From NCBI GenBank assembly GCA_964401905.1, contig CAYOAH010000001.1, positions 45,162 to 109,161 on the forward strand: a stretch of 64,000 nt of DNA, given 5' to 3'. The DNA is from an uncultured Gammaproteobacteria bacterium. Lineage in GTDB: Bacteria > Patescibacteriota > Patescibacteriia > Patescibacteriales > Patescibacteriaceae. Both the position numbers and the translations under genes were made by a program. The notes under the pieces are model-generated. The model searched no databases. It was given only the letters and a program-made list of their open reading frames with translations, and was not told the DNA's origin. Of the stretch, positions 1-9,189 are shown in pieces (the stretch's first letter is position 1; the number at the start of each line of letters is the position of its first letter).

Positions 1-1598
1 TATCTTTCTGGGAAGATTTAAATGATTTTGATGAAATTAATTTTTTAGGCACCTTTGTTGTCAATAATGAGTATAAAGATCGGGAAGGATTTGTTGATTT
101 AATAGATGGTCAACAAAGAATAATAACCATCACAATGATGTTGGCTATACTAAGAAATCAATTTTATTCTAACGATTTAAATAGTAAAGCCGAGGGGATA
201 CATTCTAGTTATATTTGTAATAGGGATGATAATGGTAATGATAGTTATAAACTAAAGGTCGGTAATAGTCTTGAAAATTATTTTATTAACTGTGTGCAAA
301 AAAATAATAATAGCTTCGATCTAAAACAAAAAACTGAGGAACAAAAGTTGTTAGAAAGGAATTATAAAATATTAAATGATAGGCTTTGTGAGCAACTAAA
401 AAAAGAGAGTGACAAGGAGTTATATTTAACAAAATTAAGAGATAGAATTAAAGATTTTGAGATTGTTTTTATAGAGGTTGATAAAGAAGAAGATGCTTTT
501 ACTTTTTTTGAAACTCTAAATGCTAGAGGCTTGGAACTTTCCACGGCTGATGTTTTAAAAAATTTGATTTTCAAGAAATTAAACAAACAAGAGAATATTA
601 ATAAATTACAGGAATCATGGCAAAATATTACAGATAATTTAACGGATAATAATGAAGAAATTGATGCATCAAGATTTATAAGACATTATTGGTTGTCAAA
701 AAATAAATTTATAACACAAAAAAGATTATTTAGATCAATTAAAGGCCACATGGAAGGAAATTCAAGGGAGTACGCCGGCTTTTTAAGTGATTTAGAAAGA
801 GAATCATTTTTTTATAGAAAAATTAATTTTCCGATAAAAGAAGAATGGAATGGCGATTATATTCAAATATATAAATCGCTAAAAAATTTAAAAAAAATGA
901 AAACATCTCAATCAAACAGCATAATGTTGTCATTAATGAGAGTTATTCATAGAAAAGACTACAGTGATAAATATAAAACAAAATATATAAGAGATACTTT
1001 TTTGTGGATTGAATATTTTACATTTACTTTTTCAGTAATAGCGAAAAAATCACCAGCCCCTCTTGAAAGAATGTACTCTAGATATGCCATTTTAATTGAT
1101 AGAGCCAAAAACAAGAAAGAACTTGAAAATAATTTATTAGATTTCAAACAAGAATTAATTAAATTAACTCCAGATAAAGATAGTTTTGTGGATGGTTTTA
1201 AAAATATTAGATATTCAAAAGCTAATCAAAAATTAATTATTTATATTCTAGAAAAGATTAACTATGCAGAAAGCAATGAACAGTCTTTCGATAATGTAAA
1301 TATTGAACATATAATTCCACAGAACCCAGATAAAAAATCAAAATATAAAAAAGATAAAATAAAAGATTTTGTTGATAATATTGGGAATTTAATGCCATTG
1401 GGTCCGGAATATAATAAAGAAGCTTCAAATCATGATCCTATAAACAAAATTGAGTACTACAAAAAATCAGAAATAAAAATGGCTTCAGATATCATTGATA
1501 AAATTGGTGTAAGTAATGATTGGGGTGAGTTTGATGTGGAAAATAGAGCTATTGATTTAGCTAATATGGCTTGGAAAATATGGAATATAAATAATTAA
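1..1598 (+). CDS. GmrSD-like DUF262/DUF1524 nuclease (type IV restriction-like), 5' partial
   Basis: The reading frame stays open to the window edge (codons start at position 3). In-frame residues upstream of the listed Met include LIDGQQRIITI (DGQQR motif of DUF262). FETLNARGLELSTADVLKN follows. The C-terminus carries a His-Me-finger-like pattern, NIEHIIPQN...IGNLMPL...N (DUF1524). Very AT-rich. Confidence 0.75.
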   Translation, partial: SFWEDLNDFDEINFLGTFVVNNEYKDREGFVDLIDGQQRIITITMMLAILRNQFYSNDLNSKAEGIHSSYICNRDDNGNDSYKLKVGNSLENYFINCVQKNNNSFDLKQKTEEQKLLERNYKILNDRLCEQLKKESDKELYLTKLRDRIKDFEIVFIEVDKEEDAFTFFETLNARGLELSTADVLKNLIFKKLNKQENINKLQESWQNITDNLTDNNEEIDASRFIRHYWLSKNKFITQKRLFRSIKGHMEGNSREYAGFLSDLERESFFYRKINFPIKEEWNGDYIQIYKSLKNLKKMKTSQSNSIMLSLMRVIHRKDYSDKYKTKYIRDTFLWIEYFTFTFSVIAKKSPAPLERMYSRYAILIDRAKNKKELENNLLDFKQELIKLTPDKDSFVDGFKNIRYSKANQKLIIYILEKINYAESNEQSFDNVNIEHIIPQNPDKKSKYKKDKIKDFVDNIGNLMPLGPEYNKEASNHDPINKIEYYKKSEIKMASDIIDKIGVSNDWGEFDVENRAIDLANMAWKIWNINN

Positions 1599-1600
1599 AT

Positions 1601-2521
1601 ATGAAATATCTTAAATTTTATAATGATACTTTGAACTGCAAAAACGAAGATCAAGTTTTTACCTATCTACTTAACACACTTAAGCCAAGCAACATGCTTT
1701 GGTCTTATTTTGTTAATTGGTCTAAAGTTTTGGACAACACAAAAAAGATAGAGATTGCTCTCAATAATCTTAATTATCTCATCGGTAAACAAGACTTTGA
1801 TAATGAATTTAAATTTTTAATCAGACAAAATCCTAAGATAGCCAAAATTATTCCAGCCTTAGTTGTTCGTGACGGCAATAATACCAATAAATTTAAAATT
1901 TTAGTCGATTACCAACATAAAAAGCTCGTTTATGAGGAATATGATTTCTCAAAAGAAGTTATAACTGACAAAGATCTTAAAAAATATCTTTTATTTGTCA
2001 AAGAAACTGGACTCAAAGATCTTATAGTCTCACAAAAAATAAAAAATTTAGTTGATTACATGATTGGCGTTGAGGCCGGCCTAGATAGTAATGGTCGAAA
2101 AAATAGAGGTGGCCATTCTATGGAAAATATCGTTGAATTTTTTATTGCCGATATCTGTAAAGATAAAAAATGGCAATATTTAAAGGAGGCTACTGCAAAA
2201 AAGATAAAGAATGAATGGGATTTTAATGTTCCAGTTGATAAATCATCGCGCCGCTATGATTTTGTTGTTAACAATGGAAATAAATTAATCATTTTTGAAA
2301 CTAATTTTTACGGTGGAGGCGGATCAAAATTAAAATCAACAGCAGGTGAGTATAGAGATCTATTTAATATTCTCAACGGCCAATACAAGTTCGTCTGGAT
2401 CACTGACGGCAATGGCTGGAAATCAACAACCAGACCACTGAGAGAGACATTTAATCATAACGACTACTTAATTAATTTGGATATGATCGAAAAAGGTATC
2501 CTAAAAGCTTTATTAATATAA
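1601..2521 (+). CDS. DpnII/MboI-family type II restriction endonuclease-like protein
   Basis: 306 aa. Blocks remembered from DpnII-type GATC endonucleases: LVDYMIGVEAGLDSNGRKNRGGHSMENIVE, RYDFVV, IIFETNFYGGGGSKLKSTAGEY, FVWITDGNGW. The ATG lies 2 nt after the upstream TAA. Confidence 0.72.
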   Translation: MKYLKFYNDTLNCKNEDQVFTYLLNTLKPSNMLWSYFVNWSKVLDNTKKIEIALNNLNYLIGKQDFDNEFKFLIRQNPKIAKIIPALVVRDGNNTNKFKILVDYQHKKLVYEEYDFSKEVITDKDLKKYLLFVKETGLKDLIVSQKIKNLVDYMIGVEAGLDSNGRKNRGGHSMENIVEFFIADICKDKKWQYLKEATAKKIKNEWDFNVPVDKSSRRYDFVVNNGNKLIIFETNFYGGGGSKLKSTAGEYRDLFNILNGQYKFVWITDGNGWKSTTRPLRETFNHNDYLINLDMIEKGILKALLI

Positions 2522-2579
2522 ATTTTTTAGAAGAATTCGATAATTTTAATTTTAAAAATAGGTGCTAAGAATAACAAAT

Positions 2580-2607
2580 AAAAGCTGGCAAAAGCCAGCT
2601 TTTATTT
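2580..2607 (+). terminator. Rho-independent terminator closing the AT-rich two-gene unit
   Basis: Stem AGCTGGC (2583-2589), loop AAAA, stem GCCAGCT (2594-2600), then a T-run. Confidence 0.6.
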
Positions 2608-2633
2608 ATGTCTAAATTATAAACATCGTTAGT

Positions 2634-2662
2634 TTGACTTTCAGACTTAGCGATGCTACAAT
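2634..2662 (+). promoter_or_regulatory. Sigma70-like promoter for the HTH-Panacea gene
   Basis: TTGACT (2634-2639), 17-nt spacer, TACAAT (2657-2662), with TG at 2654-2655 (extended -10). This places the transcription start downstream of the ATG at 2653. Confidence 0.5.
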
Positions 2663-2715
2663 ATTCTTGGGTGGGGGACACTAACCATAATCTTATGATC
2701 CCCAAATATCATAAC

Positions 2716-3378
2716 ATGATTAGAAACTTGCGTTTGGAACGAGGCCTATCCCAAGAAGAAGTTTATAGCCGCTGCGGTATCGGCCGATCTTCTTATATTT
2801 CTTTCGAGCAAGGCAAGACCGAGCTTAGCTTTTCCCAGGTTGCTCAGTTGGCCGACCTTTTCGGCCTATCCTTGGAGCAAGTGGAGGGCGGCCTCAAGCC
2901 GAACTATGAAAAATACAAGCAGATGATTCTGGCTTATTTGCGCTATCATCCTTCTAGCGACGGTAAGGTCGTCAAAACCAAACTAGCCAAGCTTTTATAC
3001 TTGGCTGATTTCGCTTGGTTCTACGACCATTTGGAGAGCATGAGCGGCATGCAGTATCGGCGCCTGCAATATGGACCTGTGCCCAATGAGTATTTTCGGG
3101 CCATCGACGAATTAGAAGAATCCGGTCAAATCAATGTTGACCACAAATCAGACATACAATTAATCTCTGAGACTACCAGCTCAAAAAAACATGTCCTAGC
3201 TGAATTATCTAAAGACGAATTAAATCTAATCAAAAAAATCTGCCAGAAATGGAAGTCTAAGAAATCGACTGAGATAGTCCATTTTACTCACAATCAGTTG
3301 CCTTACAAAATCTGTCAGCCTGATGAGATTATTCCCTATGAGCTAATCACTCAAGAAGATCCTGGCTATATTTACTAA
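2716..3378 (+). CDS. XRE-type HTH fused to a Panacea (DUF4065, SocA/GepA-like) antitoxin-type domain
   Basis: HTH: LRLERGLSQEEVYSRCGIGRSSYISFEQGKTELSFSQVAQLADLFGLS. DUF4065-like: KLAKLLYLADFAWFYDHLESMSGMQYRRLQYGPVPNEYFRAIDELEESGQI. The start is chosen at ATG 2716 because the predicted promoter excludes 2653. ATG 2695 is also possible. Confidence 0.7.
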   Translation: MIRNLRLERGLSQEEVYSRCGIGRSSYISFEQGKTELSFSQVAQLADLFGLSLEQVEGGLKPNYEKYKQMILAYLRYHPSSDGKVVKTKLAKLLYLADFAWFYDHLESMSGMQYRRLQYGPVPNEYFRAIDELEESGQINVDHKSDIQLISETTSSKKHVLAELSKDELNLIKKICQKWKSKKSTEIVHFTHNQLPYKICQPDEIIPYELITQEDPGYIY

Positions 3379-4868
3379 TCATTTAACTCCTTCTCCAGCA
3401 CCTCCCGCGCCACTTGCGGGTTGGCTTTGCCGGAGCTGCGACGCATTAATTGACCGACAAAAAACTGCATCAGGGGAGTCTTGCCGGCGCGGTAGTCAGA
3501 TACCTGTTGGGGGTATTCGGCGATAATAGCCCGAGCTAATTCGGCTAATTCATCACTATTATCCACTTGTTCTAAATCTAATCTCTCAATAACTTCCGCC
3601 ACGCTGAGGTTATTATTTTCAACCAATTCGGCTAGCACCGCTTGGCCGGCCGTGGAATTAATCTTGTTATCAGCAATAGCTATTGCCAGATCAACCAAGT
3701 GGCTGGGGCTAACTGGACCGTCAGCTAGATTATCTAAGCGGCAATGCTTGGCGACTTCGCTAGTTAGCCAATTGATAGCCGTTTTAGCAATAATTGCCGC
3801 CGCCTCTGGCCGATTCTTGGTGGCTAAGGTCAAAACCTGGTCAACATAAGCCGCCGTGGCCGGCCAACTGGTCAGTAAATCAGCGCTATCTCCTGGCAAC
3901 TGATAATCTCTTTGCCAACGCTGAGCTTTAACTAAAGGCAATTCAATTTTTTCCACCTCGCTAGCGGCTGTTGCCAGCCAGTGATCATTAACCACCAGCG
4001 GGGGAATATCCGGTTCAGTGAAATAGCGGTAATCGGCCATCGTTTCTTTGACCCGCTGGGCCTTGGTGGCGTTGCCAGCTTCGTCCCAGCCCCTGGTTTC
4101 AGCTGCTACCTGGCCGCCGCTAGTTAGCACTTCGCCTTGGCGCTTGATTTCATAATCAATAGCTCGCTCTAGGGCTTTGAACGAATTAAGATTCTTGACT
4201 TCTACCTTGTTATTTAGCTGATAACCAGCTAGACCAATAATAGTCGCGCCGTCAATCTGGTAGCGACCGGCTTCTTGCAGGCTGATATTGGCTTCGCAGC
4301 GCATCTCCGCCTTTTCCATATTGGCAGCGGAAATCCCCAGATAGCGCAATAATCTTTGAAATTCTTGACCAAAGCGCCGCGCCTCTTGCGCCGATGTAAT
4401 CACTGGCCCGGTAACCAATTCAATCAGGGGAGTGCCGGCCCGATTAAAATCAACCAAGCTATGCTGGTTATTTTTATCATGAGCCAGCTTGCCAGTGTCT
4501 TCTTCCAAATGAATGCGAGTAACGAAAATATCGCGGCCGTCAATTGACAATTTACCACTATACCCTAGTGGAGTATCTGATTGAGTTATCTGATACCCTT
4601 TGGGGAGGTCAGGATAAAAGTAATTCTTGCGGGCGAAGCGACTGTGCTGATTTATCTGGCAATTCAAAGCTTTGGCCAAGAGCAGCCCGAAGTGGACCGC
4701 TTGCCGGTTAGGCCGCGGTAGAGTGCCTGGATGCCCTAGACAGATCGGACAAACCACAGTATTAGCCGCCTGCCCTTCGGCATTATTATCGCAGCGGCAA
4801 AACATTTTGCTTTTGGTCTTCAATTCGGTATGGATTTCCAGGCCGATGACTGGGATTAATTGTTCCAT
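3375..4868 (-). CDS. gatB: Asp/Glu-tRNA(Asn/Gln) amidotransferase subunit B
   Basis: MEQLIPVIGLEIHTELKTKSKMFCRC... and YFYPDLPKGYQITQ are typical of GatB. The start is moved to ATG 4868, because the 35-aa extension in the ORF track runs into the upstream gene. Confidence 0.9.
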   Translation of the reverse strand: MEQLIPVIGLEIHTELKTKSKMFCRCDNNAEGQAANTVVCPICLGHPGTLPRPNRQAVHFGLLLAKALNCQINQHSRFARKNYFYPDLPKGYQITQSDTPLGYSGKLSIDGRDIFVTRIHLEEDTGKLAHDKNNQHSLVDFNRAGTPLIELVTGPVITSAQEARRFGQEFQRLLRYLGISAANMEKAEMRCEANISLQEAGRYQIDGATIIGLAGYQLNNKVEVKNLNSFKALERAIDYEIKRQGEVLTSGGQVAAETRGWDEAGNATKAQRVKETMADYRYFTEPDIPPLVVNDHWLATAASEVEKIELPLVKAQRWQRDYQLPGDSADLLTSWPATAAYVDQVLTLATKNRPEAAAIIAKTAINWLTSEVAKHCRLDNLADGPVSPSHLVDLAIAIADNKINSTAGQAVLAELVENNNLSVAEVIERLDLEQVDNSDELAELARAIIAEYPQQVSDYRAGKTPLMQFFVGQLMRRSSGKANPQVAREVLEKELND

Positions 4869-4890
4869 AATAAAGCTTGAATTGTTTGGC

Positions 4891-5475
4891 TTAAAACAAA
4901 GCTTGAACCGCCAGCCACAATTGATCGTTGAGATTGTCGATAGGCTGATTAGCGTCAAAACGCGGCCAGCCATAACGCTCAGCTAGCTGTTGGTGGCATT
5001 CGCGGACTTTATCCATTAACTGATTATTATTTTCGTGCTTATGGCCTTGTTCAATACCGCTGACAAAACGCTGGCCGTCCAGCCACAAGGCCAAATCCGG
5101 TTTCAGTAAGCCGTCGTTGATTGCTTCCAGAAAATTAAGCTTGGCGCCAGCTCCCCAGCCCCAAGCCAAACCGGTGCCGGTATAATCTTCAGCGACAATC
5201 CATTCACCGGCGGCTAATTGCTTTTCCAGCTCCGGTTGGTATTGAAAACGATTTAAAGCATAGATAATCTGCGCTTCCCGCGGCGATAGCTGTAGTGGAT
5301 TGCCTTCCCGCAAATAGGCGTTGAGCAGCGGACCGCTCGGCGCCAGCTCATAAATCGGATATTTCAAATAGGTAGTGGAATAACCGGCATCGCGCAAACG
5401 GTCAACCAGCAGCTTGGCCTGAGTGCTCTTGCCTAGATTATTAATACCGTAGAGAACGATTAATTTTCCGGCCAT
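4891..5475 (-). CDS. Thymidylate kinase-like P-loop kinase
   Basis: P-loop LYGINNLGKSTQAKLL. Length (194 aa) and layout resemble the dTMP kinase family. Confidence 0.6.
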   Translation of the reverse strand: MAGKLIVLYGINNLGKSTQAKLLVDRLRDAGYSTTYLKYPIYELAPSGPLLNAYLREGNPLQLSPREAQIIYALNRFQYQPELEKQLAAGEWIVAEDYTGTGLAWGWGAGAKLNFLEAINDGLLKPDLALWLDGQRFVSGIEQGHKHENNNQLMDKVRECHQQLAERYGWPRFDANQPIDNLNDQLWLAVQALF

Positions 5476-5492
5476 AAATTTAAGCTTAAGTT

Positions 5493-6047
5493 TTAACCGG
5501 CCAATTGCCGGTAAATATTTTCCGCCTGCTCATACAGGGCGGCTAGATCGCCATTATTATCTACTTGGAAGTCGGCCTCAGCGATTGCCTGCGGAATATC
5601 TTGTTCGGCCTCGCCTTGCTCATCAATTTTGAATTGCTCCAAAGTCTTGCTGGCGTCGTCCGGATTCTGGCCGCGCTTGGTTAAACGCTGATGGCGCAGG
5701 CCCTGATCAGCCAAGACCGCCACTAAATGAAAATTGGGGAATTCGCGAAAAGCCACAAAATCACCATAGCGGCGCATACCCTCCAGGAGTATAAACGGAC
5801 AGGGGTCATTTTGAACATCGCGCATAATCGCTTTCAAAATAATATCCTGACCGAATTGGCGCCTGAGGATTGATGACAGATTAGCCATGTTTTCCCTGGT
5901 CTGCGGCAGAGTCAGGCGATCAACGATATCACGCAGGGGACCGGAAAAGCCATAGACTTTACCGCCATATTTTTCCGCCAAATACTTGGCAATAGTCGTC
6001 TTGCCGGCGGCTAATTGGCCGGTCAGACCGATAATCAACTTGTCCAT
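5493..6047 (-). CDS. P-loop nucleotide kinase (CoaE/dNMP-kinase-like)
   Basis: Walker A GLTGQLAAGKTT. Small kinase-like size. The ATG at 6047 is preferred over the TTG at 6059. Confidence 0.5.
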   Translation of the reverse strand: MDKLIIGLTGQLAAGKTTIAKYLAEKYGGKVYGFSGPLRDIVDRLTLPQTRENMANLSSILRRQFGQDIILKAIMRDVQNDPCPFILLEGMRRYGDFVAFREFPNFHLVAVLADQGLRHQRLTKRGQNPDDASKTLEQFKIDEQGEAEQDIPQAIAEADFQVDNNGDLAALYEQAENIYRQLAG

Positions 6048-6067
6048 AAATTCTTTCAATCAACGAA

Positions 6068-6604
6068 TTAAGCTTGTTCTATATTAACGGCGGCGCCGTA
6101 TTGTTCGCTATCGTCCAGCATGTCTTTTTCTTGCCAATCATTAACCCAATCGCTAATTTTATAGGTTTTAAAGCTGCCGTCGGCTTGGCGGCCGACCAGT
6201 TTTTCAATGCCGGCGTTGATAATCATTTTCTTGCAGATAAAACAGGGATAAGCATCTTGCGGTTTTTCCTGGCCGTCGCGAATAACTGTGGAATAGAGAT
6301 ACATGGTTGAGCCGAGCAGGCTGGCGCCGGCTCGAGCGGCGTTAATGATGGCATTTTGTTCGGCATGGACACTGCGGCACAATTCATAACGATGGCCGTG
6401 CGGCACCTTAAGCATGGCCCTAAGGCAGTTGCCGCGTTCCCAGCAATCCTTAGTCTTGCGTGGCGACCCTAGGTAGCCGGTGGAAATAATCTGATCGTCG
6501 CGAACAATAATGGCGCCATGTTTGGCCCGATAACAAGTGGAGCGGCCGGCCACTTCGCCGGCGATATTCATATAATACTCCAATTTGGATGGTCTGCTTG
6601 GCAT
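6068..6604 (-). CDS. dCMP (deoxycytidylate) deaminase
   Basis: Zinc motifs HAEQNAI and PCFICKKMI (HAE...PCxxC). Confidence 0.85.
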   Translation of the reverse strand: MPSRPSKLEYYMNIAGEVAGRSTCYRAKHGAIIVRDDQIISTGYLGSPRKTKDCWERGNCLRAMLKVPHGHRYELCRSVHAEQNAIINAARAGASLLGSTMYLYSTVIRDGQEKPQDAYPCFICKKMIINAGIEKLVGRQADGSFKTYKISDWVNDWQEKDMLDDSEQYGAAVNIEQA

Positions 6605-6676
6605 AAAATATTGATTTTAACTGTTCTTTATAATCATTTTAACAGATTAAACTAGCTTTCGGCAAGCCTGAAAAAA

Positions 6677-6685
6677 TGCTATAAT
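6677..6685 (+). promoter_or_regulatory. Extended -10 element (TGcTATAAT) immediately upstream of the Smr gene
   Basis: TG at 6677-6678 and TATAAT at 6680-6685. The ATG at 6695 lies only about 10 nt downstream, so the mRNA is nearly leaderless. Confidence 0.4.
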
Positions 6686-6694
6686 CTAACCATT

Positions 6695-7006
6695 ATGAGC
6701 CGCCACTTAATTCAGCGCAAGGTCAATAAATATCTGCAAGAACCAGCTGCCAAGCTGGACTTGCACGGCCACAGCCGCCGCGAAGCCGAAGTAGAGCTGA
6801 TCGGCTTCTTTGACTACTGGATCAAGCAGGGTGGCGGTGTCAAGCTACTGATTATTACCGGCCAAGGCTGGCATTCAGCTGATGGCCAGGGCGTGCTCAA
6901 AGATTTTACCGCCGCTTGGCTTAAGACTCGGGGCTATCGTCAGCGAACCGCCAAGCCACAATTTGGCGGCGCTGGAGCTATTGAAGTTGACTTGCCAATA
7001 ACTTAA
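6695..7006 (+). CDS. Smr domain protein
   Basis: LDLHGHSRREAEVEL and a standalone Smr-like size (103 aa). Confidence 0.7.
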   Translation: MSRHLIQRKVNKYLQEPAAKLDLHGHSRREAEVELIGFFDYWIKQGGGVKLLIITGQGWHSADGQGVLKDFTAAWLKTRGYRQRTAKPQFGGAGAIEVDLPIT

Positions 7007-7009
7007 ACA

Positions 7010-7041
7010 AAAAACCAATCCTTGAGGGGATTGGTTTTTTT
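7010..7041. terminator. Bidirectional hairpin terminator between the Smr gene and rplA
   Basis: CCAATCC (7015-7021), 6-nt loop, GGATTGG (7028-7034), with an A-run on one side and a T-run on the other. Confidence 0.6.
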
Positions 7042-7081
7042 ATGGGGCGCTCCAATGACGGAGCAGCTGGTAATTTTAGAA

Positions 7082-7798
7082 TTATTGACCCAATGAAACT
7101 CGGATGCCCGGCCCCATTGAGGAACAGATGGTCACGCTCTTGATGTAAGTGCCCTTGGCCGCCGACGGCTTGCTCTTTTTGATAGTTTCCATTAAAGCCT
7201 GGAAATTATCGGCCAGCCGTTCGGCGCTGAAAGAAACTTTACCAATGGCGACATGCAGATTGGCAGTATCATCATTCTTAAAGCTGACCTTGCCTTTCTT
7301 TAATTCAGTAACCGCTTTGGCTGGATCAGTCGTCACGGTTTCATTCTTGGGTGACGGCATCAAGCCGCGAGTACCCAAGATCTTGGAAATAACCGCCAAA
7401 TTGCGCATCAAAGCCGGTTCAGCCACTGCTACCTGAAAATCGGTCTTTTCAGTCTTGCGGATTTCTTCAATCAATTCATCGCCGCCGACCAAATCAGCAC
7501 CGGCCTCTTTAACAGCCGCCTCATTTTCCGGACTGACAAACGCCGCCACTTTGACGGTCTTGCCAGTACCATGCGGCAAGCTGACCGCGCCGCGAATCTG
7601 CTGATCGCCCTTACGCGGATCAATACCGAGCCGCAAATGAACCTCTACCGAAGCGTCAAACTTGGTCACGCTGGTTTTCTTAACCAGCTCCAAAGCCTCA
7701 GTCAAAACATAGGTCTTGGTCTTGTCAACCAGCTGGCGGACTTCGGCTTGCGCCTTGCCCTGCTTAGCGGTCTTGTTTTTCTGTACTTTCTTAGCCAT
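7082..7798 (-). CDS. rplA: 50S ribosomal protein L1
   Basis: Typical L1 sequence (DASVEVHLRLGIDPRKGDQQIRG...) and its position after rplK. Confidence 0.95.
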   Translation of the reverse strand: MAKKVQKNKTAKQGKAQAEVRQLVDKTKTYVLTEALELVKKTSVTKFDASVEVHLRLGIDPRKGDQQIRGAVSLPHGTGKTVKVAAFVSPENEAAVKEAGADLVGGDELIEEIRKTEKTDFQVAVAEPALMRNLAVISKILGTRGLMPSPKNETVTTDPAKAVTELKKGKVSFKNDDTANLHVAIGKVSFSAERLADNFQALMETIKKSKPSAAKGTYIKSVTICSSMGPGIRVSLGQ

Positions 7799-7815
7799 AC
7801 GATTGTGGTGCGAGT

Positions 7816-7830
7816 GCTAGCTAGCTAGCT
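7816..7830. repeat. (GCTA/CTAG)x3 microrepeat in the rplK-rplA spacer
   Basis: gctagctagctagct read directly. It lies within an imperfect hairpin spanning 7805-7835. Confidence 0.8.
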
Positions 7831-7855
7831 CCCACGATCCTATTTAATAAATAAA

Positions 7856-8281
7856 TTAGTCTTTAATCTCAATACCCATCTGACGAGCAGTGCCGGCAAT
7901 AATTTTCATCGCCGCCTCAACATCGCGGGCATTCAAATCGCTCATCTTGGTTTCGGCAATCTCTTTCAGCTGGGCTGTTGTCAGACTGCCGACTTTTTCT
8001 TTGAGCGCCTTGCTGGAACCTTTGCTAACCTTGGCCGCCTTTTTGATCAATTCAGAAGCTGGCGCCGTTTTGGTAATAAAATCAAAGCTGCGATCAGCAT
8101 AAACAGTAATAACAACCGGCACGACATCACCCATCTTGTCGCGGGTGGCGTCGTTGAACTTGCTGCAAAAATCAGCGATATTCAAGCCGTGCTGGCCCAA
8201 GGCTGGGCCGACCGGCGGGGCTGGATTAGCTTGACCGCCTTTAATCTGCAATTTTATCTGGGTAACTATTTTTTTAGCCAT
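7856..8281 (-). CDS. rplK: 50S ribosomal protein L11
   Basis: [27 protein letters not shown] is the canonical L11 N-terminus. Confidence 0.95.
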
Positions 8282-8348
8282 ACGTTTGTTTAAGGGGCGG
8301 TGAGCGGAGAAGCGCGCCGTTACCGGCCCGCCACCAGCCTATCTGTAA

Positions 8349-8894
8349 TTAAAGCTTATTAATCTGTAAAAAATCTAACTCTACCGGGGTCTCGCGACCG
8401 AACATGGAAATCAGCAATTTGACCTTGCCGCGGTTTTCATCAACCTCGGTGACCTTGCCTTCCAAATTCTTGAACGGACCGTCAATAATCCGCACCGGTG
8501 AGCCGACGGACACATCAATCTTAAACTTCGGTTCATCCAAGCCCATTCTCTTTTGCAATTCTTTAATCTCGGCTTCATCAATCGGCGTTGGCACGGTGCC
8601 GGTACCGACAAAACCGGTAACATTCGGCGTATTGCGAATAGCATACCAGGAATCATCAGTCACAATCATTTCCACTAAGATATAGCCGGGGAAAATCTTT
8701 TCCTCATAAACCTTGCGCTTGCCGTTGACGATTTTAATCTTCTTTTCGATCGGAATCATGACATTAAAGATTTTGTCTTCCATGTCCATCGATTCAATGC
8801 GCTGCTTGATATTCTGGGCGACATTTTCTTCATAGCCCGAATAAGTGTGCAGGACATACCAGCGCCGTCCTTGATTAAGAGTTTGTTTAGCCAT
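8349..8894 (-). CDS. nusG: Transcription termination/antitermination factor NusG
   Basis: RWYVLHTYSGYEENV... NGN domain plus a KOW region (GSPVRIIDGPFKNLEGKV). Located in the secE-nusG-rplK-rplA cluster. Confidence 0.95.
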   Translation of the reverse strand: MAKQTLNQGRRWYVLHTYSGYEENVAQNIKQRIESMDMEDKIFNVMIPIEKKIKIVNGKRKVYEEKIFPGYILVEMIVTDDSWYAIRNTPNVTGFVGTGTVPTPIDEAEIKELQKRMGLDEPKFKIDVSVGSPVRIIDGPFKNLEGKVTEVDENRGKVKLLISMFGRETPVELDFLQINKL

Positions 8895-8916
8895 AGGAAT
8901 GAACTAAAATTAGTGA

Positions 8917-9102
8917 TTATTGCTTAATCAGCAACTTCAAGCCTGCCGCGAATAAAGCATCTAGGCCGCCCAAAAAAATGGCGGTGCCCACGCTGATGCC
9001 AATGACTAGCAAGGTGTAGTTGTAGGTTTCTTTCTTAGTCGGCCAGGCGACCTTCTTGATTTCCGCCCAAGCTGAACGAAAATAAGCAGTGATTTTCTCC
9101 AT
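8917..9102 (-). CDS. secE: Preprotein translocase subunit SecE
   Basis: 61 aa with a single TM segment, containing AEIKKVAWPTKKE, directly upstream of nusG. Confidence 0.8.
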   Translation of the reverse strand: MEKITAYFRSAWAEIKKVAWPTKKETYNYTLLVIGISVGTAIFLGGLDALFAAGLKLLIKQ

Positions 9103-9189
9103 AAATCTTGATTTTAAAAACAGCCCTGGCGGGCGTTTTATTGATAGTTCTATTTTATCAAAAGCGGTCTGTATTTGTCAACATTCTTG

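Follow-up and report, generated by a model that had tools for sequence, protein, structure and literature searches.

A HEC-06-like GmrSD gene embedded in a DpnII-type restriction–modification cassette of a Patescibacteria genome

How can two nuclease genes lie side by side in a bacterial genome with no methyltransferase in view? The question is raised by an AT-rich islet at the start of a 64,000 nt stretch of DNA (assembly GCA_964401905.1, contig CAYOAH010000001.1, positions 45,162–109,161), referred to here as the window, in which a gene for a GmrSD-like nuclease is followed directly by a gene for a DpnII-family endonuclease. The initial annotation had taken these genes for a methylase-less operon, in which a modification-dependent nuclease is paired with a modification-blocked one. 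We have found that the window edge cut off two further genes and that the locus is, as judged from its sequence, a four-gene operon: a DpnII-type restriction–modification (R-M) cassette with a HEC-06-like GmrSD gene embedded in it. The operon was horizontally acquired and resides in the genome of a member of the Patescibacteria (candidate phyla radiation, CPR).

The missing genes were recovered from related contigs. An exact-protein look-up with the DpnII-family product returned 12 contigs; contig L001 is 100% identical to window positions 1–3065 and extends a further 1896 nt in the 5′ direction, and contig L002, 99.8% identical across the window part, has the same gene order. Beyond the window edge, L001 holds a promoter-like site (L001 114–141) followed on the + strand by a gene for a dpnM-like, D12-class methyltransferase of 278 aa (L001 161–997, window −1735 to −899) and one for a dpnA-like N6_N4 methyltransferase of 259 aa (L001 998–1777, window −898 to −119). 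Next comes the gmrSD-like gene, complete at 570 aa (L001 1782–3494), with 93% of its length, at the 3′ end, inside the window (1–1598, residues 39–570); its ORF there runs in the frame from base 3 and is open at the 5′ end, the true ATG start lying 114 nt 5′ of the window (L001 1782). The dpnB-like type II endonuclease gene of 306 aa (window 1601–2521, L001 3497–4417, + strand, Pfam DpnII) completes the series. All four genes are intact, lie on one strand and are separated by 0, 4 and 2 nt, the last gap being that between the gmrSD stop codon (TAA at 1596–1598) and dpnB, so that the tight coupling of the two nuclease genes described initially is borne out. A bidirectional intrinsic-terminator-like hairpin, AAAAGCTGGC-AAAA-GCCAGCTTTT followed by a T-run (16 pairs, 5 GC, loop 4), closes the operon. 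The single shared terminator of the initial annotation is thus present after dpnB, but at window 2574–2609 (L001 4470–4505) and not at 2580–2607, and no terminator-like site was found on the + strand between the four genes.

The idea of a methylase-less operon had drawn on the coupling of the nuclease genes, on their common terminator and on the lack of a methyltransferase motif in the window. The last of these observations was correct for the 64 kb examined, where no ORF of at least 80 aa carries the methyltransferase motif IV, [DNS]PP[YFW], but it does not apply to the operon, which the window edge cuts. Two methyltransferase genes lie 4 nt 5′ of gmrSD in L001, which matches the window part exactly, with the same operon in L002, and the related loci described below all carry methylases, leaving this explanation with practically no credence. 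Misassembly of L001 and L002 is unlikely because the dpnA/gmrSD junction is shared, and identical, among four independent assemblies (L001–L004). It had also been proposed that a Dam-type methylase immediately upstream would reduce the locus to an ordinary DpnII-type cassette next to an independent type IV enzyme. Such a methylase is indeed there, yet the locus is not of that kind because gmrSD lies within the cassette, after dpnA and before dpnB. The arrangement of the classical DpnII cassette, known from Streptococcus pneumoniae and with LlaDCHI and MboI as relatives, is dpnM-dpnA-dpnB. The present cassette has the PF04556 endonuclease, the same-strand D12 methylase and the second, N6_N4 methylase, but the contiguous gene order is broken by the 1713-nt gmrSD between dpnA and dpnB.

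The composition of the islet provides a second view of its origin. GC content lies between 0.24 and 0.32 up to about position 2600 and between 0.40 and 0.55 thereafter (300-nt windows), and is 27.4% overall in positions 1–2650 versus 46.1% in the remainder of the window, confirming the AT-rich islet reported at 1–2650. The in-window part of the islet spans 1–2652 (+ strand); the full cassette measures about 4.6 kb (L002 147–4775), with the dpnM-like and dpnA-like part 5′ of the window edge. Gene by gene, GC content is 37.0% in dpnM, 37.3% in dpnA, 26.4% in gmrSD and 30.6% in dpnB, compared with 46% in the host, and GC at third codon positions (GC3) is 20% in gmrSD versus 35–36% in the methylases. 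Because per-gene GC differs from that of the host as well as between genes, we conclude that the cassette is foreign to the host genome and is compositionally composite itself.

The same boundary is seen in population variation. Nine contigs, nearly identical and obtained from different samples, differ at 0–3 positions in each of gmrSD and dpnB, whereas both flanks diverge. On the upstream side, L002 has 43 differences in the 837 nt of dpnM and 23 in the 780 nt of dpnA, the last of them about 80 nt short of the dpnA 3′ end, and the upstream edge of the nearly invariant block coincides with the GC step. On the downstream side, the gene that follows the terminator diverges by 11–16% (L003, L010) despite the same gmrSD–dpnB block. 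The AT-rich block does behave as a discrete unit, as had been suggested: gmrSD and dpnB have spread recently, and the pair moves between strains as a recombination unit.

The assignment of the methylases and of DpnB to their families is clear. For the D12 methylase, in whose translation DPPY and FxGxG motifs are visible, the top match in the PDB is S. pneumoniae DpnM (2DPM, 3.6e-69). The second methylase is of the beta class and matches CcrM (1.3e-60) and Helicobacter pylori DpnA (1.8e-27) in the PDB and Pfam N6_N4_Mtase (1e-60), and both proteins match the PADLOC model MTase_II (3e-99 and 5.5e-101). DpnB matches Pfam DpnII (PF04556) at 1e-89 over profile positions 2–277 of 278, and PADLOC REase_II at 1.3e-89, in agreement with the DpnII-family assignment made earlier; no sequence-related solved structure was found for it, and NCBIfam gave no meaningful match for either nuclease. 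In the known systems, DpnM and DpnA methylate the adenines of GATC and DpnB cuts unmethylated GATC. We infer the same recognition sequence here, with cleavage blocked by N6-methyladenine (m6A), from family membership only, and the GATC counts of the host are consistent with it: in the host part of the window 185 sites are observed versus 234–255 expected, a mildly low number that does not amount to avoidance, and the cassette itself contains 15. These counts fit protection by methylation, which would be needed because GATC sites are present both in the host part and in the cassette. Several other 4-bp palindromes are depleted in window positions 2651–64000, namely TCGA (52 observed versus 149 Markov-expected), ACGT (29 versus 61), GTAC (28 versus 43 Markov-expected and 234 by zero-order expectation) and TGCA (96 versus 136), which suggests pressure, past or present, from other restriction systems.

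The product of gmrSD matches Pfam GmrSD_N (3.8e-24) and GmrSD_C (1.2e-21), and its best PADLOC model is HEC-06 (PDLC04157, 1.9e-87, residues 2–528 against profile positions 42–556 of 558). DGQQR lies at residue 74 and EHIIP at residue 474, so the GmrSD (DUF262/DUF1524) identity and the DGQQR and His-Me-finger hallmarks of the initial annotation hold in both the Pfam comparison and the motif check. Within the clade described below, DGQQR, E474, H475, N501 and N510 are invariant. Relative to contig L022, dN/dS is about 0.08 for gmrSD and about 0.05 for dpnB, with dS near saturation, and both genes are under purifying selection. An AlphaFold2 (AF2) model of the protein (pLDDT 88) was most similar in Foldseek to DndI (7e-17), followed by SspE (3.5e-13) and BrxU (4.7e-07); the corresponding TM scores were 0.73/0.70 for DndI (9JFL), 0.44 for SspE and 0.36 for BrxU, such global scores varying with domain orientation in multi-domain models. 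DndI is the nearest solved structure by sequence too (8e-10, 19% identity). The gene contains an A8 homopolymer (window 890–897, + strand), which has nine residues in L003, one of nine contigs that cover the site; the additional A splits gmrSD into a 355-aa GmrS-like and a 233-aa GmrD-like ORF. This difference could be phase variation or an error of sequencing or assembly.

Is the association of this GmrSD with a Dam-type cassette accidental? From the GmrSD side, we surveyed the homologues returned by protein searches, with their contigs, many of them short, and the best 80 metagenome loci. GmrSD proteins with 38% identity or more to ours come from 14 distinct loci, and each of these is a Dam-type type II cassette that contains a D12 methylase, a DpnA-like methylase or both, together with a candidate type II endonuclease; the figure counts loci and not independent events. 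The co-occurrence of the gene pair beyond this genome, on which the initial annotation had in part staked its claim, is thereby established. In a rough neighbour-joining tree (corrected p-distances, no bootstrap) the GmrSD proteins of these loci form one clade. Gene order varies among them. The order D12–N6_N4–GmrSD–DpnII of the present locus recurs in L022/L023, and L024 and L025 have N6_N4–GmrSD–DpnII; D12–GmrSD–DpnII–N6_N4 was found in L111 and L048, D12–GmrSD–MutH–N6_N4 in L112 (on the basis of stored Pfam annotation only) and D12–GmrSD–X205–N6_N4 in L026, L031 and P0012. The remaining orders are N6_N4–MutH-like–GmrSD (L030), GmrSD–N6_N4–DpnII (L032), GmrSD–N6_N4–MutH-like (L033) and D12–endonuclease (PDLC03513)–GmrSD, the last within an integrase/primase element (L110). 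The endonuclease slot is thus occupied by four unrelated families (DpnII, MutH-like, PDLC03457 and PDLC03513); MutH/Sau3AI-type enzymes, like DpnII, are GATC enzymes. That X205 might be a divergent MutH-like protein was considered and rejected by BLASTP. The most stable partner is the DpnA-like methylase, at 66–72% identity everywhere, while GmrSD identity among loci is 27–47%, except in L022 where it reaches 77% and all four genes are 73–83% identical. In most loci GmrSD lies immediately 5′ of the endonuclease gene, with gaps of −4 to +14 nt.

The L110 locus (positions 1–6740) places its cassette, with an endonuclease of the DUF6996/6997/7226 type, beside a phage-type integrase and a D5_N/DUF5906 primase, and this integrative mobile element is the sole case seen with obvious mobility genes; in the viral contig collection no clade member was found, the top match being 27% identical. 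L048 (positions 4020–9145) lies on a contig of 25% GC with almost no ORFs under translation table 11, and could be mistaken for a decayed copy. That view was rejected: with UGA taken as sense, the contig yields 17 ORFs of 100 aa or more, among them an intact cassette in the order D12, GmrSD, DpnB, a 160-aa product and N6_N4, with 19 in-frame UGA codons in gmrSD. The host is probably of the Gracilibacteria/Absconditabacteria type, and since the cassette is intact with UGA as sense, the module has resided in a recoded lineage.

Outside this clade the linkage changes. Among the 31–36% homologues, which form the sister clade, no D12 methylase, DpnII or MutH occurs among 36 immediate neighbours; four of these are N6_N4 methylases, at least one of which (L028) is a large Hma-type enzyme, and the remainder are mostly housekeeping genes. 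Known kinds of context were seen for two homologues outside the clade, one 33% identical (L028) in a locus like the helicase-methylase-ATPase system Hma and one 26% identical (L029) in BREX. From the DpnB side, 11 genomes, mostly of Patescibacteria, encode a DpnB 66–81% identical to ours. In nine of these dpnA directly adjoins dpnB with no GmrSD gene, and in two (L011 and L017) the same slot holds a GmrSD-like gene, only 27% identical to ours, whose product carries EHIIS. Comparison of L011 with L012 is the most direct: dpnA and dpnB have 88–90% nucleotide identity and L012 is without the 1.65-kb GmrSD gene, a clean gain or loss at the dpnA/dpnB junction. A third GmrSD lineage (L074/L076, 28% identical) also follows a DpnA-like methylase. 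Two distant GmrSD lineages are therefore found in similar slots, the one in L011 and L017 being independent of ours. The pairing of GmrSD with these cassettes is real, not accidental.

A real pairing may nevertheless be a neutral one, and presence or absence exactly at the dpnA/dpnB junction of otherwise similar cassettes is what would be expected if GmrSD were a hitchhiker or a decaying insertion in a permissive slot, riding on the cassette promoter. The absence of GmrSD from nine of 11 close DpnB relatives, the lower GC3 of gmrSD than of the methylases and the frameshift in one population variant can be read in the same way. We consider this explanation improbable, however, in view of the low dN/dS and the invariant catalytic residues, of a clade that has outlasted changes in gene order, in endonuclease family and, in L048, in the genetic code, and of two or three GmrSD lineages converging on the same kind of cassette. 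The usual position immediately 5′ of the endonuclease gene raises another possibility, since such close spacing suggests stoichiometric co-translation: GmrSD might be an accessory or regulatory subunit, not itself a nuclease, that acts on DpnB or the methylases by physical contact, perhaps to hold back nuclease activity after transfer. This we regard as very improbable. The partner endonucleases belong to four unrelated families, a methylase gene stands between GmrSD and the endonuclease in L032 and L033, GmrSD lies 3′ of the endonuclease in L030 and L110, and the nuclease and NTPase motifs are fully conserved.

Our current working hypothesis, which we favour somewhat and which rests on analogy with relatives, is that the embedded GmrSD acts as an independent second nuclease layer. 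DpnM and DpnA would methylate the adenines of GATC and thus render host DNA immune to DpnB, which would cut incoming DNA at unmethylated GATC. In the GmrSD protein, NTP hydrolysis would license the His-Me nuclease, as in GmrSD, BrxU and HEC-06, and the enzyme would most likely attack hypermodified DNA that DpnB cannot cut, with embedding in the cassette providing co-transcription and co-inheritance. Type IV behaviour of this GmrSD, that is, NTP-stimulated cleavage of DNA containing hydroxymethylcytosine (hmC), glucosylated hmC or 5-methylcytosine, is assumed by analogy. Several points weigh against the hypothesis. A substrate is known neither for HEC-06 nor for the GmrSD proteins of this clade, and dependence on modification is borrowed from distant relatives at only 14–19% identity; the GATC specificity of the methylases and DpnB is itself predicted from sequence. 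The nearest solved structure, DndI, is a nuclease gated by a self mark, and not BrxU. If GmrSD acted independently, stand-alone clade members would be expected; there are none among the 14 loci, and the sister clade is mostly stand-alone. Family members differ in their behaviour towards modified DNA (PMC11322646, PMC11662687), and EF_B0059, a GmrSD-like protein, is toxic in Escherichia coli unable to methylate DNA (PMC11322646).

Some of these points lead to a tentative alternative, to which we give a lesser but not negligible weight, in which GmrSD is a second effector gated by the Dam mark, reading G6mATC as self and attacking unmarked DNA. In the cassette, a single modification module would then serve DpnB and GmrSD alike as restriction modules, much as DndBCDE serves both DndFGH and DndI. 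The presence of a D12 and/or DpnA-like methylase in all 14 loci while the endonuclease is swapped among four families, and the steadiness of the DpnA-like methylase while GmrSD and the endonuclease vary, are consistent with such gating, as is the failure to find a stand-alone member of the clade, unlike the sister clade. DndI, the best match by sequence and, in the predicted model, by fold (TM 0.73 versus 0.36 for BrxU), is itself co-transcribed with another restriction module and has a modification module in common with it (PMC11662687), and EF_B0059 acts without DNA methylation (PMC11322646). Against it, HEC-06, the best-matching model, needs no partner methylase to protect when cloned, and the classical endonuclease present in every resolved locus makes a second reader of the mark unnecessary. 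The nearly invariant gmrSD–dpnB block lies beside dpnM and dpnA alleles that differ by 3–5%, TM scores depend on domain orientation in multi-domain models, and the 14 loci may stem from one ancestral embedding and hence not be independent; nor is an m6A-reading member of the GmrSD family known. The evidence for gating by the host's own modification, as in DndI and SspE, is circumstantial and lies in the linkage of the clade to Dam-type methylases. The independent second layer is still the hypothesis we favour. Its anti-escape logic, the pairing of a modification-blocked with a modification-dependent nuclease, was put forward in the initial annotation but is not new, having been published for BrxU in BREX and proposed for GmrSD-like genes in Hma and type I R-M (bioRxiv 10.1101/2024.01.29.577857).

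The neighbourhood of the operon was also inspected. Immediately after the terminator (window 2653–3378, + strand) lies the divergent gene mentioned above, which encodes a protein with HTH_3 (Pfam 1e-11) and SocA/Panacea (5.8e-15) domains and has no obvious toxin partner. It was considered as a part of the module and rejected, being absent beside L022 and 11–16% divergent between strains. From the other strand gatB converges on it (window 3375–4973, − strand); as listed, the gatB product has 532 aa with a 35-aa N-terminal extension relative to 497-aa homologues and overlaps the next gene, and the real start is probably at 4868. Among named relatives, the nearest to the window GatB are a protein of Candidatus Falkowbacteria (83% identity) and those of other Patescibacteria (50–64%). 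The source metagenome-assembled genome carries the label ‘Sphaerochaetaceae bacterium’ (NCBI protein MFA7119364.1), which is probably wrong, the contig being mis-binned or mislabelled. At the other end, two operator-like palindromes, TATTGCA-N16-TGCAATA, lie 40 nt apart 5′ of dpnM (L002 187–216 and 227–256; L001 4–33 and 44–73). They occur only in L001 and L002 and are missing from the 77% cassette L022 and from the window, and were rejected as a general feature of the module. The region upstream of dpnM in L002 also has, relative to L001, an extra insert of about 46 nt with GTTTACAT repeats.

This study therefore corrects an attractive but wrong reading, that of a methylase-less pair, which arose when the window edge cut the methylases off. 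It adds compact type II cassettes to the operons (BREX, Hma, DISARM and type I R-M) in which one defence is known to be embedded within another, and delineates a GmrSD/HEC-06 subclade, coherent and found mostly in Patescibacteria, that is constantly tied to Dam-type methylation across its 14 loci and gives a way to ask whether m6A can gate GmrSD-family enzymes. To our knowledge, few defences have been recognised in CPR bacteria, and a two-layer module of 4.6 kb that spreads by recombination is relevant to their phage resistance. Mark gating, if true, would account for the retention of Dam-type methylases by a clade in which the endonuclease is swapped; the protein would be the first m6A-sensing enzyme of the GmrSD family, and a type II cassette would have one modification module for two mechanistically unrelated restriction modules.

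How, finally, does the locus compare with known systems? Like the classical DpnII cassette, it is a single-strand operon that combines a D12 methylase and a further, beta-class N6_N4 methylase with a PF04556 endonuclease; unlike it, it has a 570-aa GmrSD gene between dpnA and dpnB, and its second methylase gives a higher score with CcrM than with H. pylori DpnA. DUF262 genes, RloF among them, also lie within type I R-M loci (Miller, 2005, cited in Machnicka, 2015, PMC4619093), a similar nesting of a GmrSD-family gene between R-M genes, although in a type I (hsdRMS) system and not in a type II system as here. Table 1 of that source gives the twelve neighbourhood domains with the strongest enrichment (of 169 domains), and Dam-type cassettes are not among them. 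The published survey of embedding deals with Hma, BREX, DISARM and type I R-M and does not cover type II (bioRxiv 10.1101/2024.01.29.577857), and in open-access full text we found no description of a GmrSD associated with DpnII or embedded in type II R-M. BrxU acts against modified DNA and in this way complements BREX (Picton et al., 2021, cited in bioRxiv 10.1101/2024.01.29.577857). It too is a GmrSD-family nuclease within a methylation-based system, and its published two-layer rationale is that of the initial annotation; it is only about 14% identical to our protein, with a poor global match in fold (TM 0.36), and the BREX-embedded relative is the 26% homologue L029. DndI, whose ATPase is stimulated by phosphorothioate so that the nuclease comes off self DNA, and which is co-transcribed with DndFGH (PMC11662687), has the closest fold (9JFL, IscS-DndBCDE-DndI/DndFGHI) and likewise combines co-transcription with a common modification module. 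In contrast to DndI and SspE, the mark here would be m6A and not phosphorothioate, the identity is 19%, and no dnd or ssp genes were found in L001, L002 or window 1–6000. GmrSD-like genes are often embedded in Hma (HEC-05 and HEC-06), BREX and type I R-M, and HEC-06 (Hma-embedded candidate 6) alone defends E. coli in a manner requiring DGQQR and EHxxP (Payne et al., bioRxiv 10.1101/2024.01.29.577857). The present GmrSD shares with HEC-06 the DUF262–linker–DUF1524 architecture, both motifs, the best PADLOC model and a same-orientation embedding inside a methylation-based defence operon. It differs in that the host operon is a Dam-type type II cassette, not Hma, with D12, N6_N4 and DpnII as neighbours; an Hma-like context is seen only in the 33% relative L028, and our clade is separate in the tree. 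The embedding of GmrSD in defence operons and the logic of paired nucleases were already known, and what we rate as new is not a new system but a dedicated GmrSD/HEC-06 subclade that resides in Dam-type type II cassettes.

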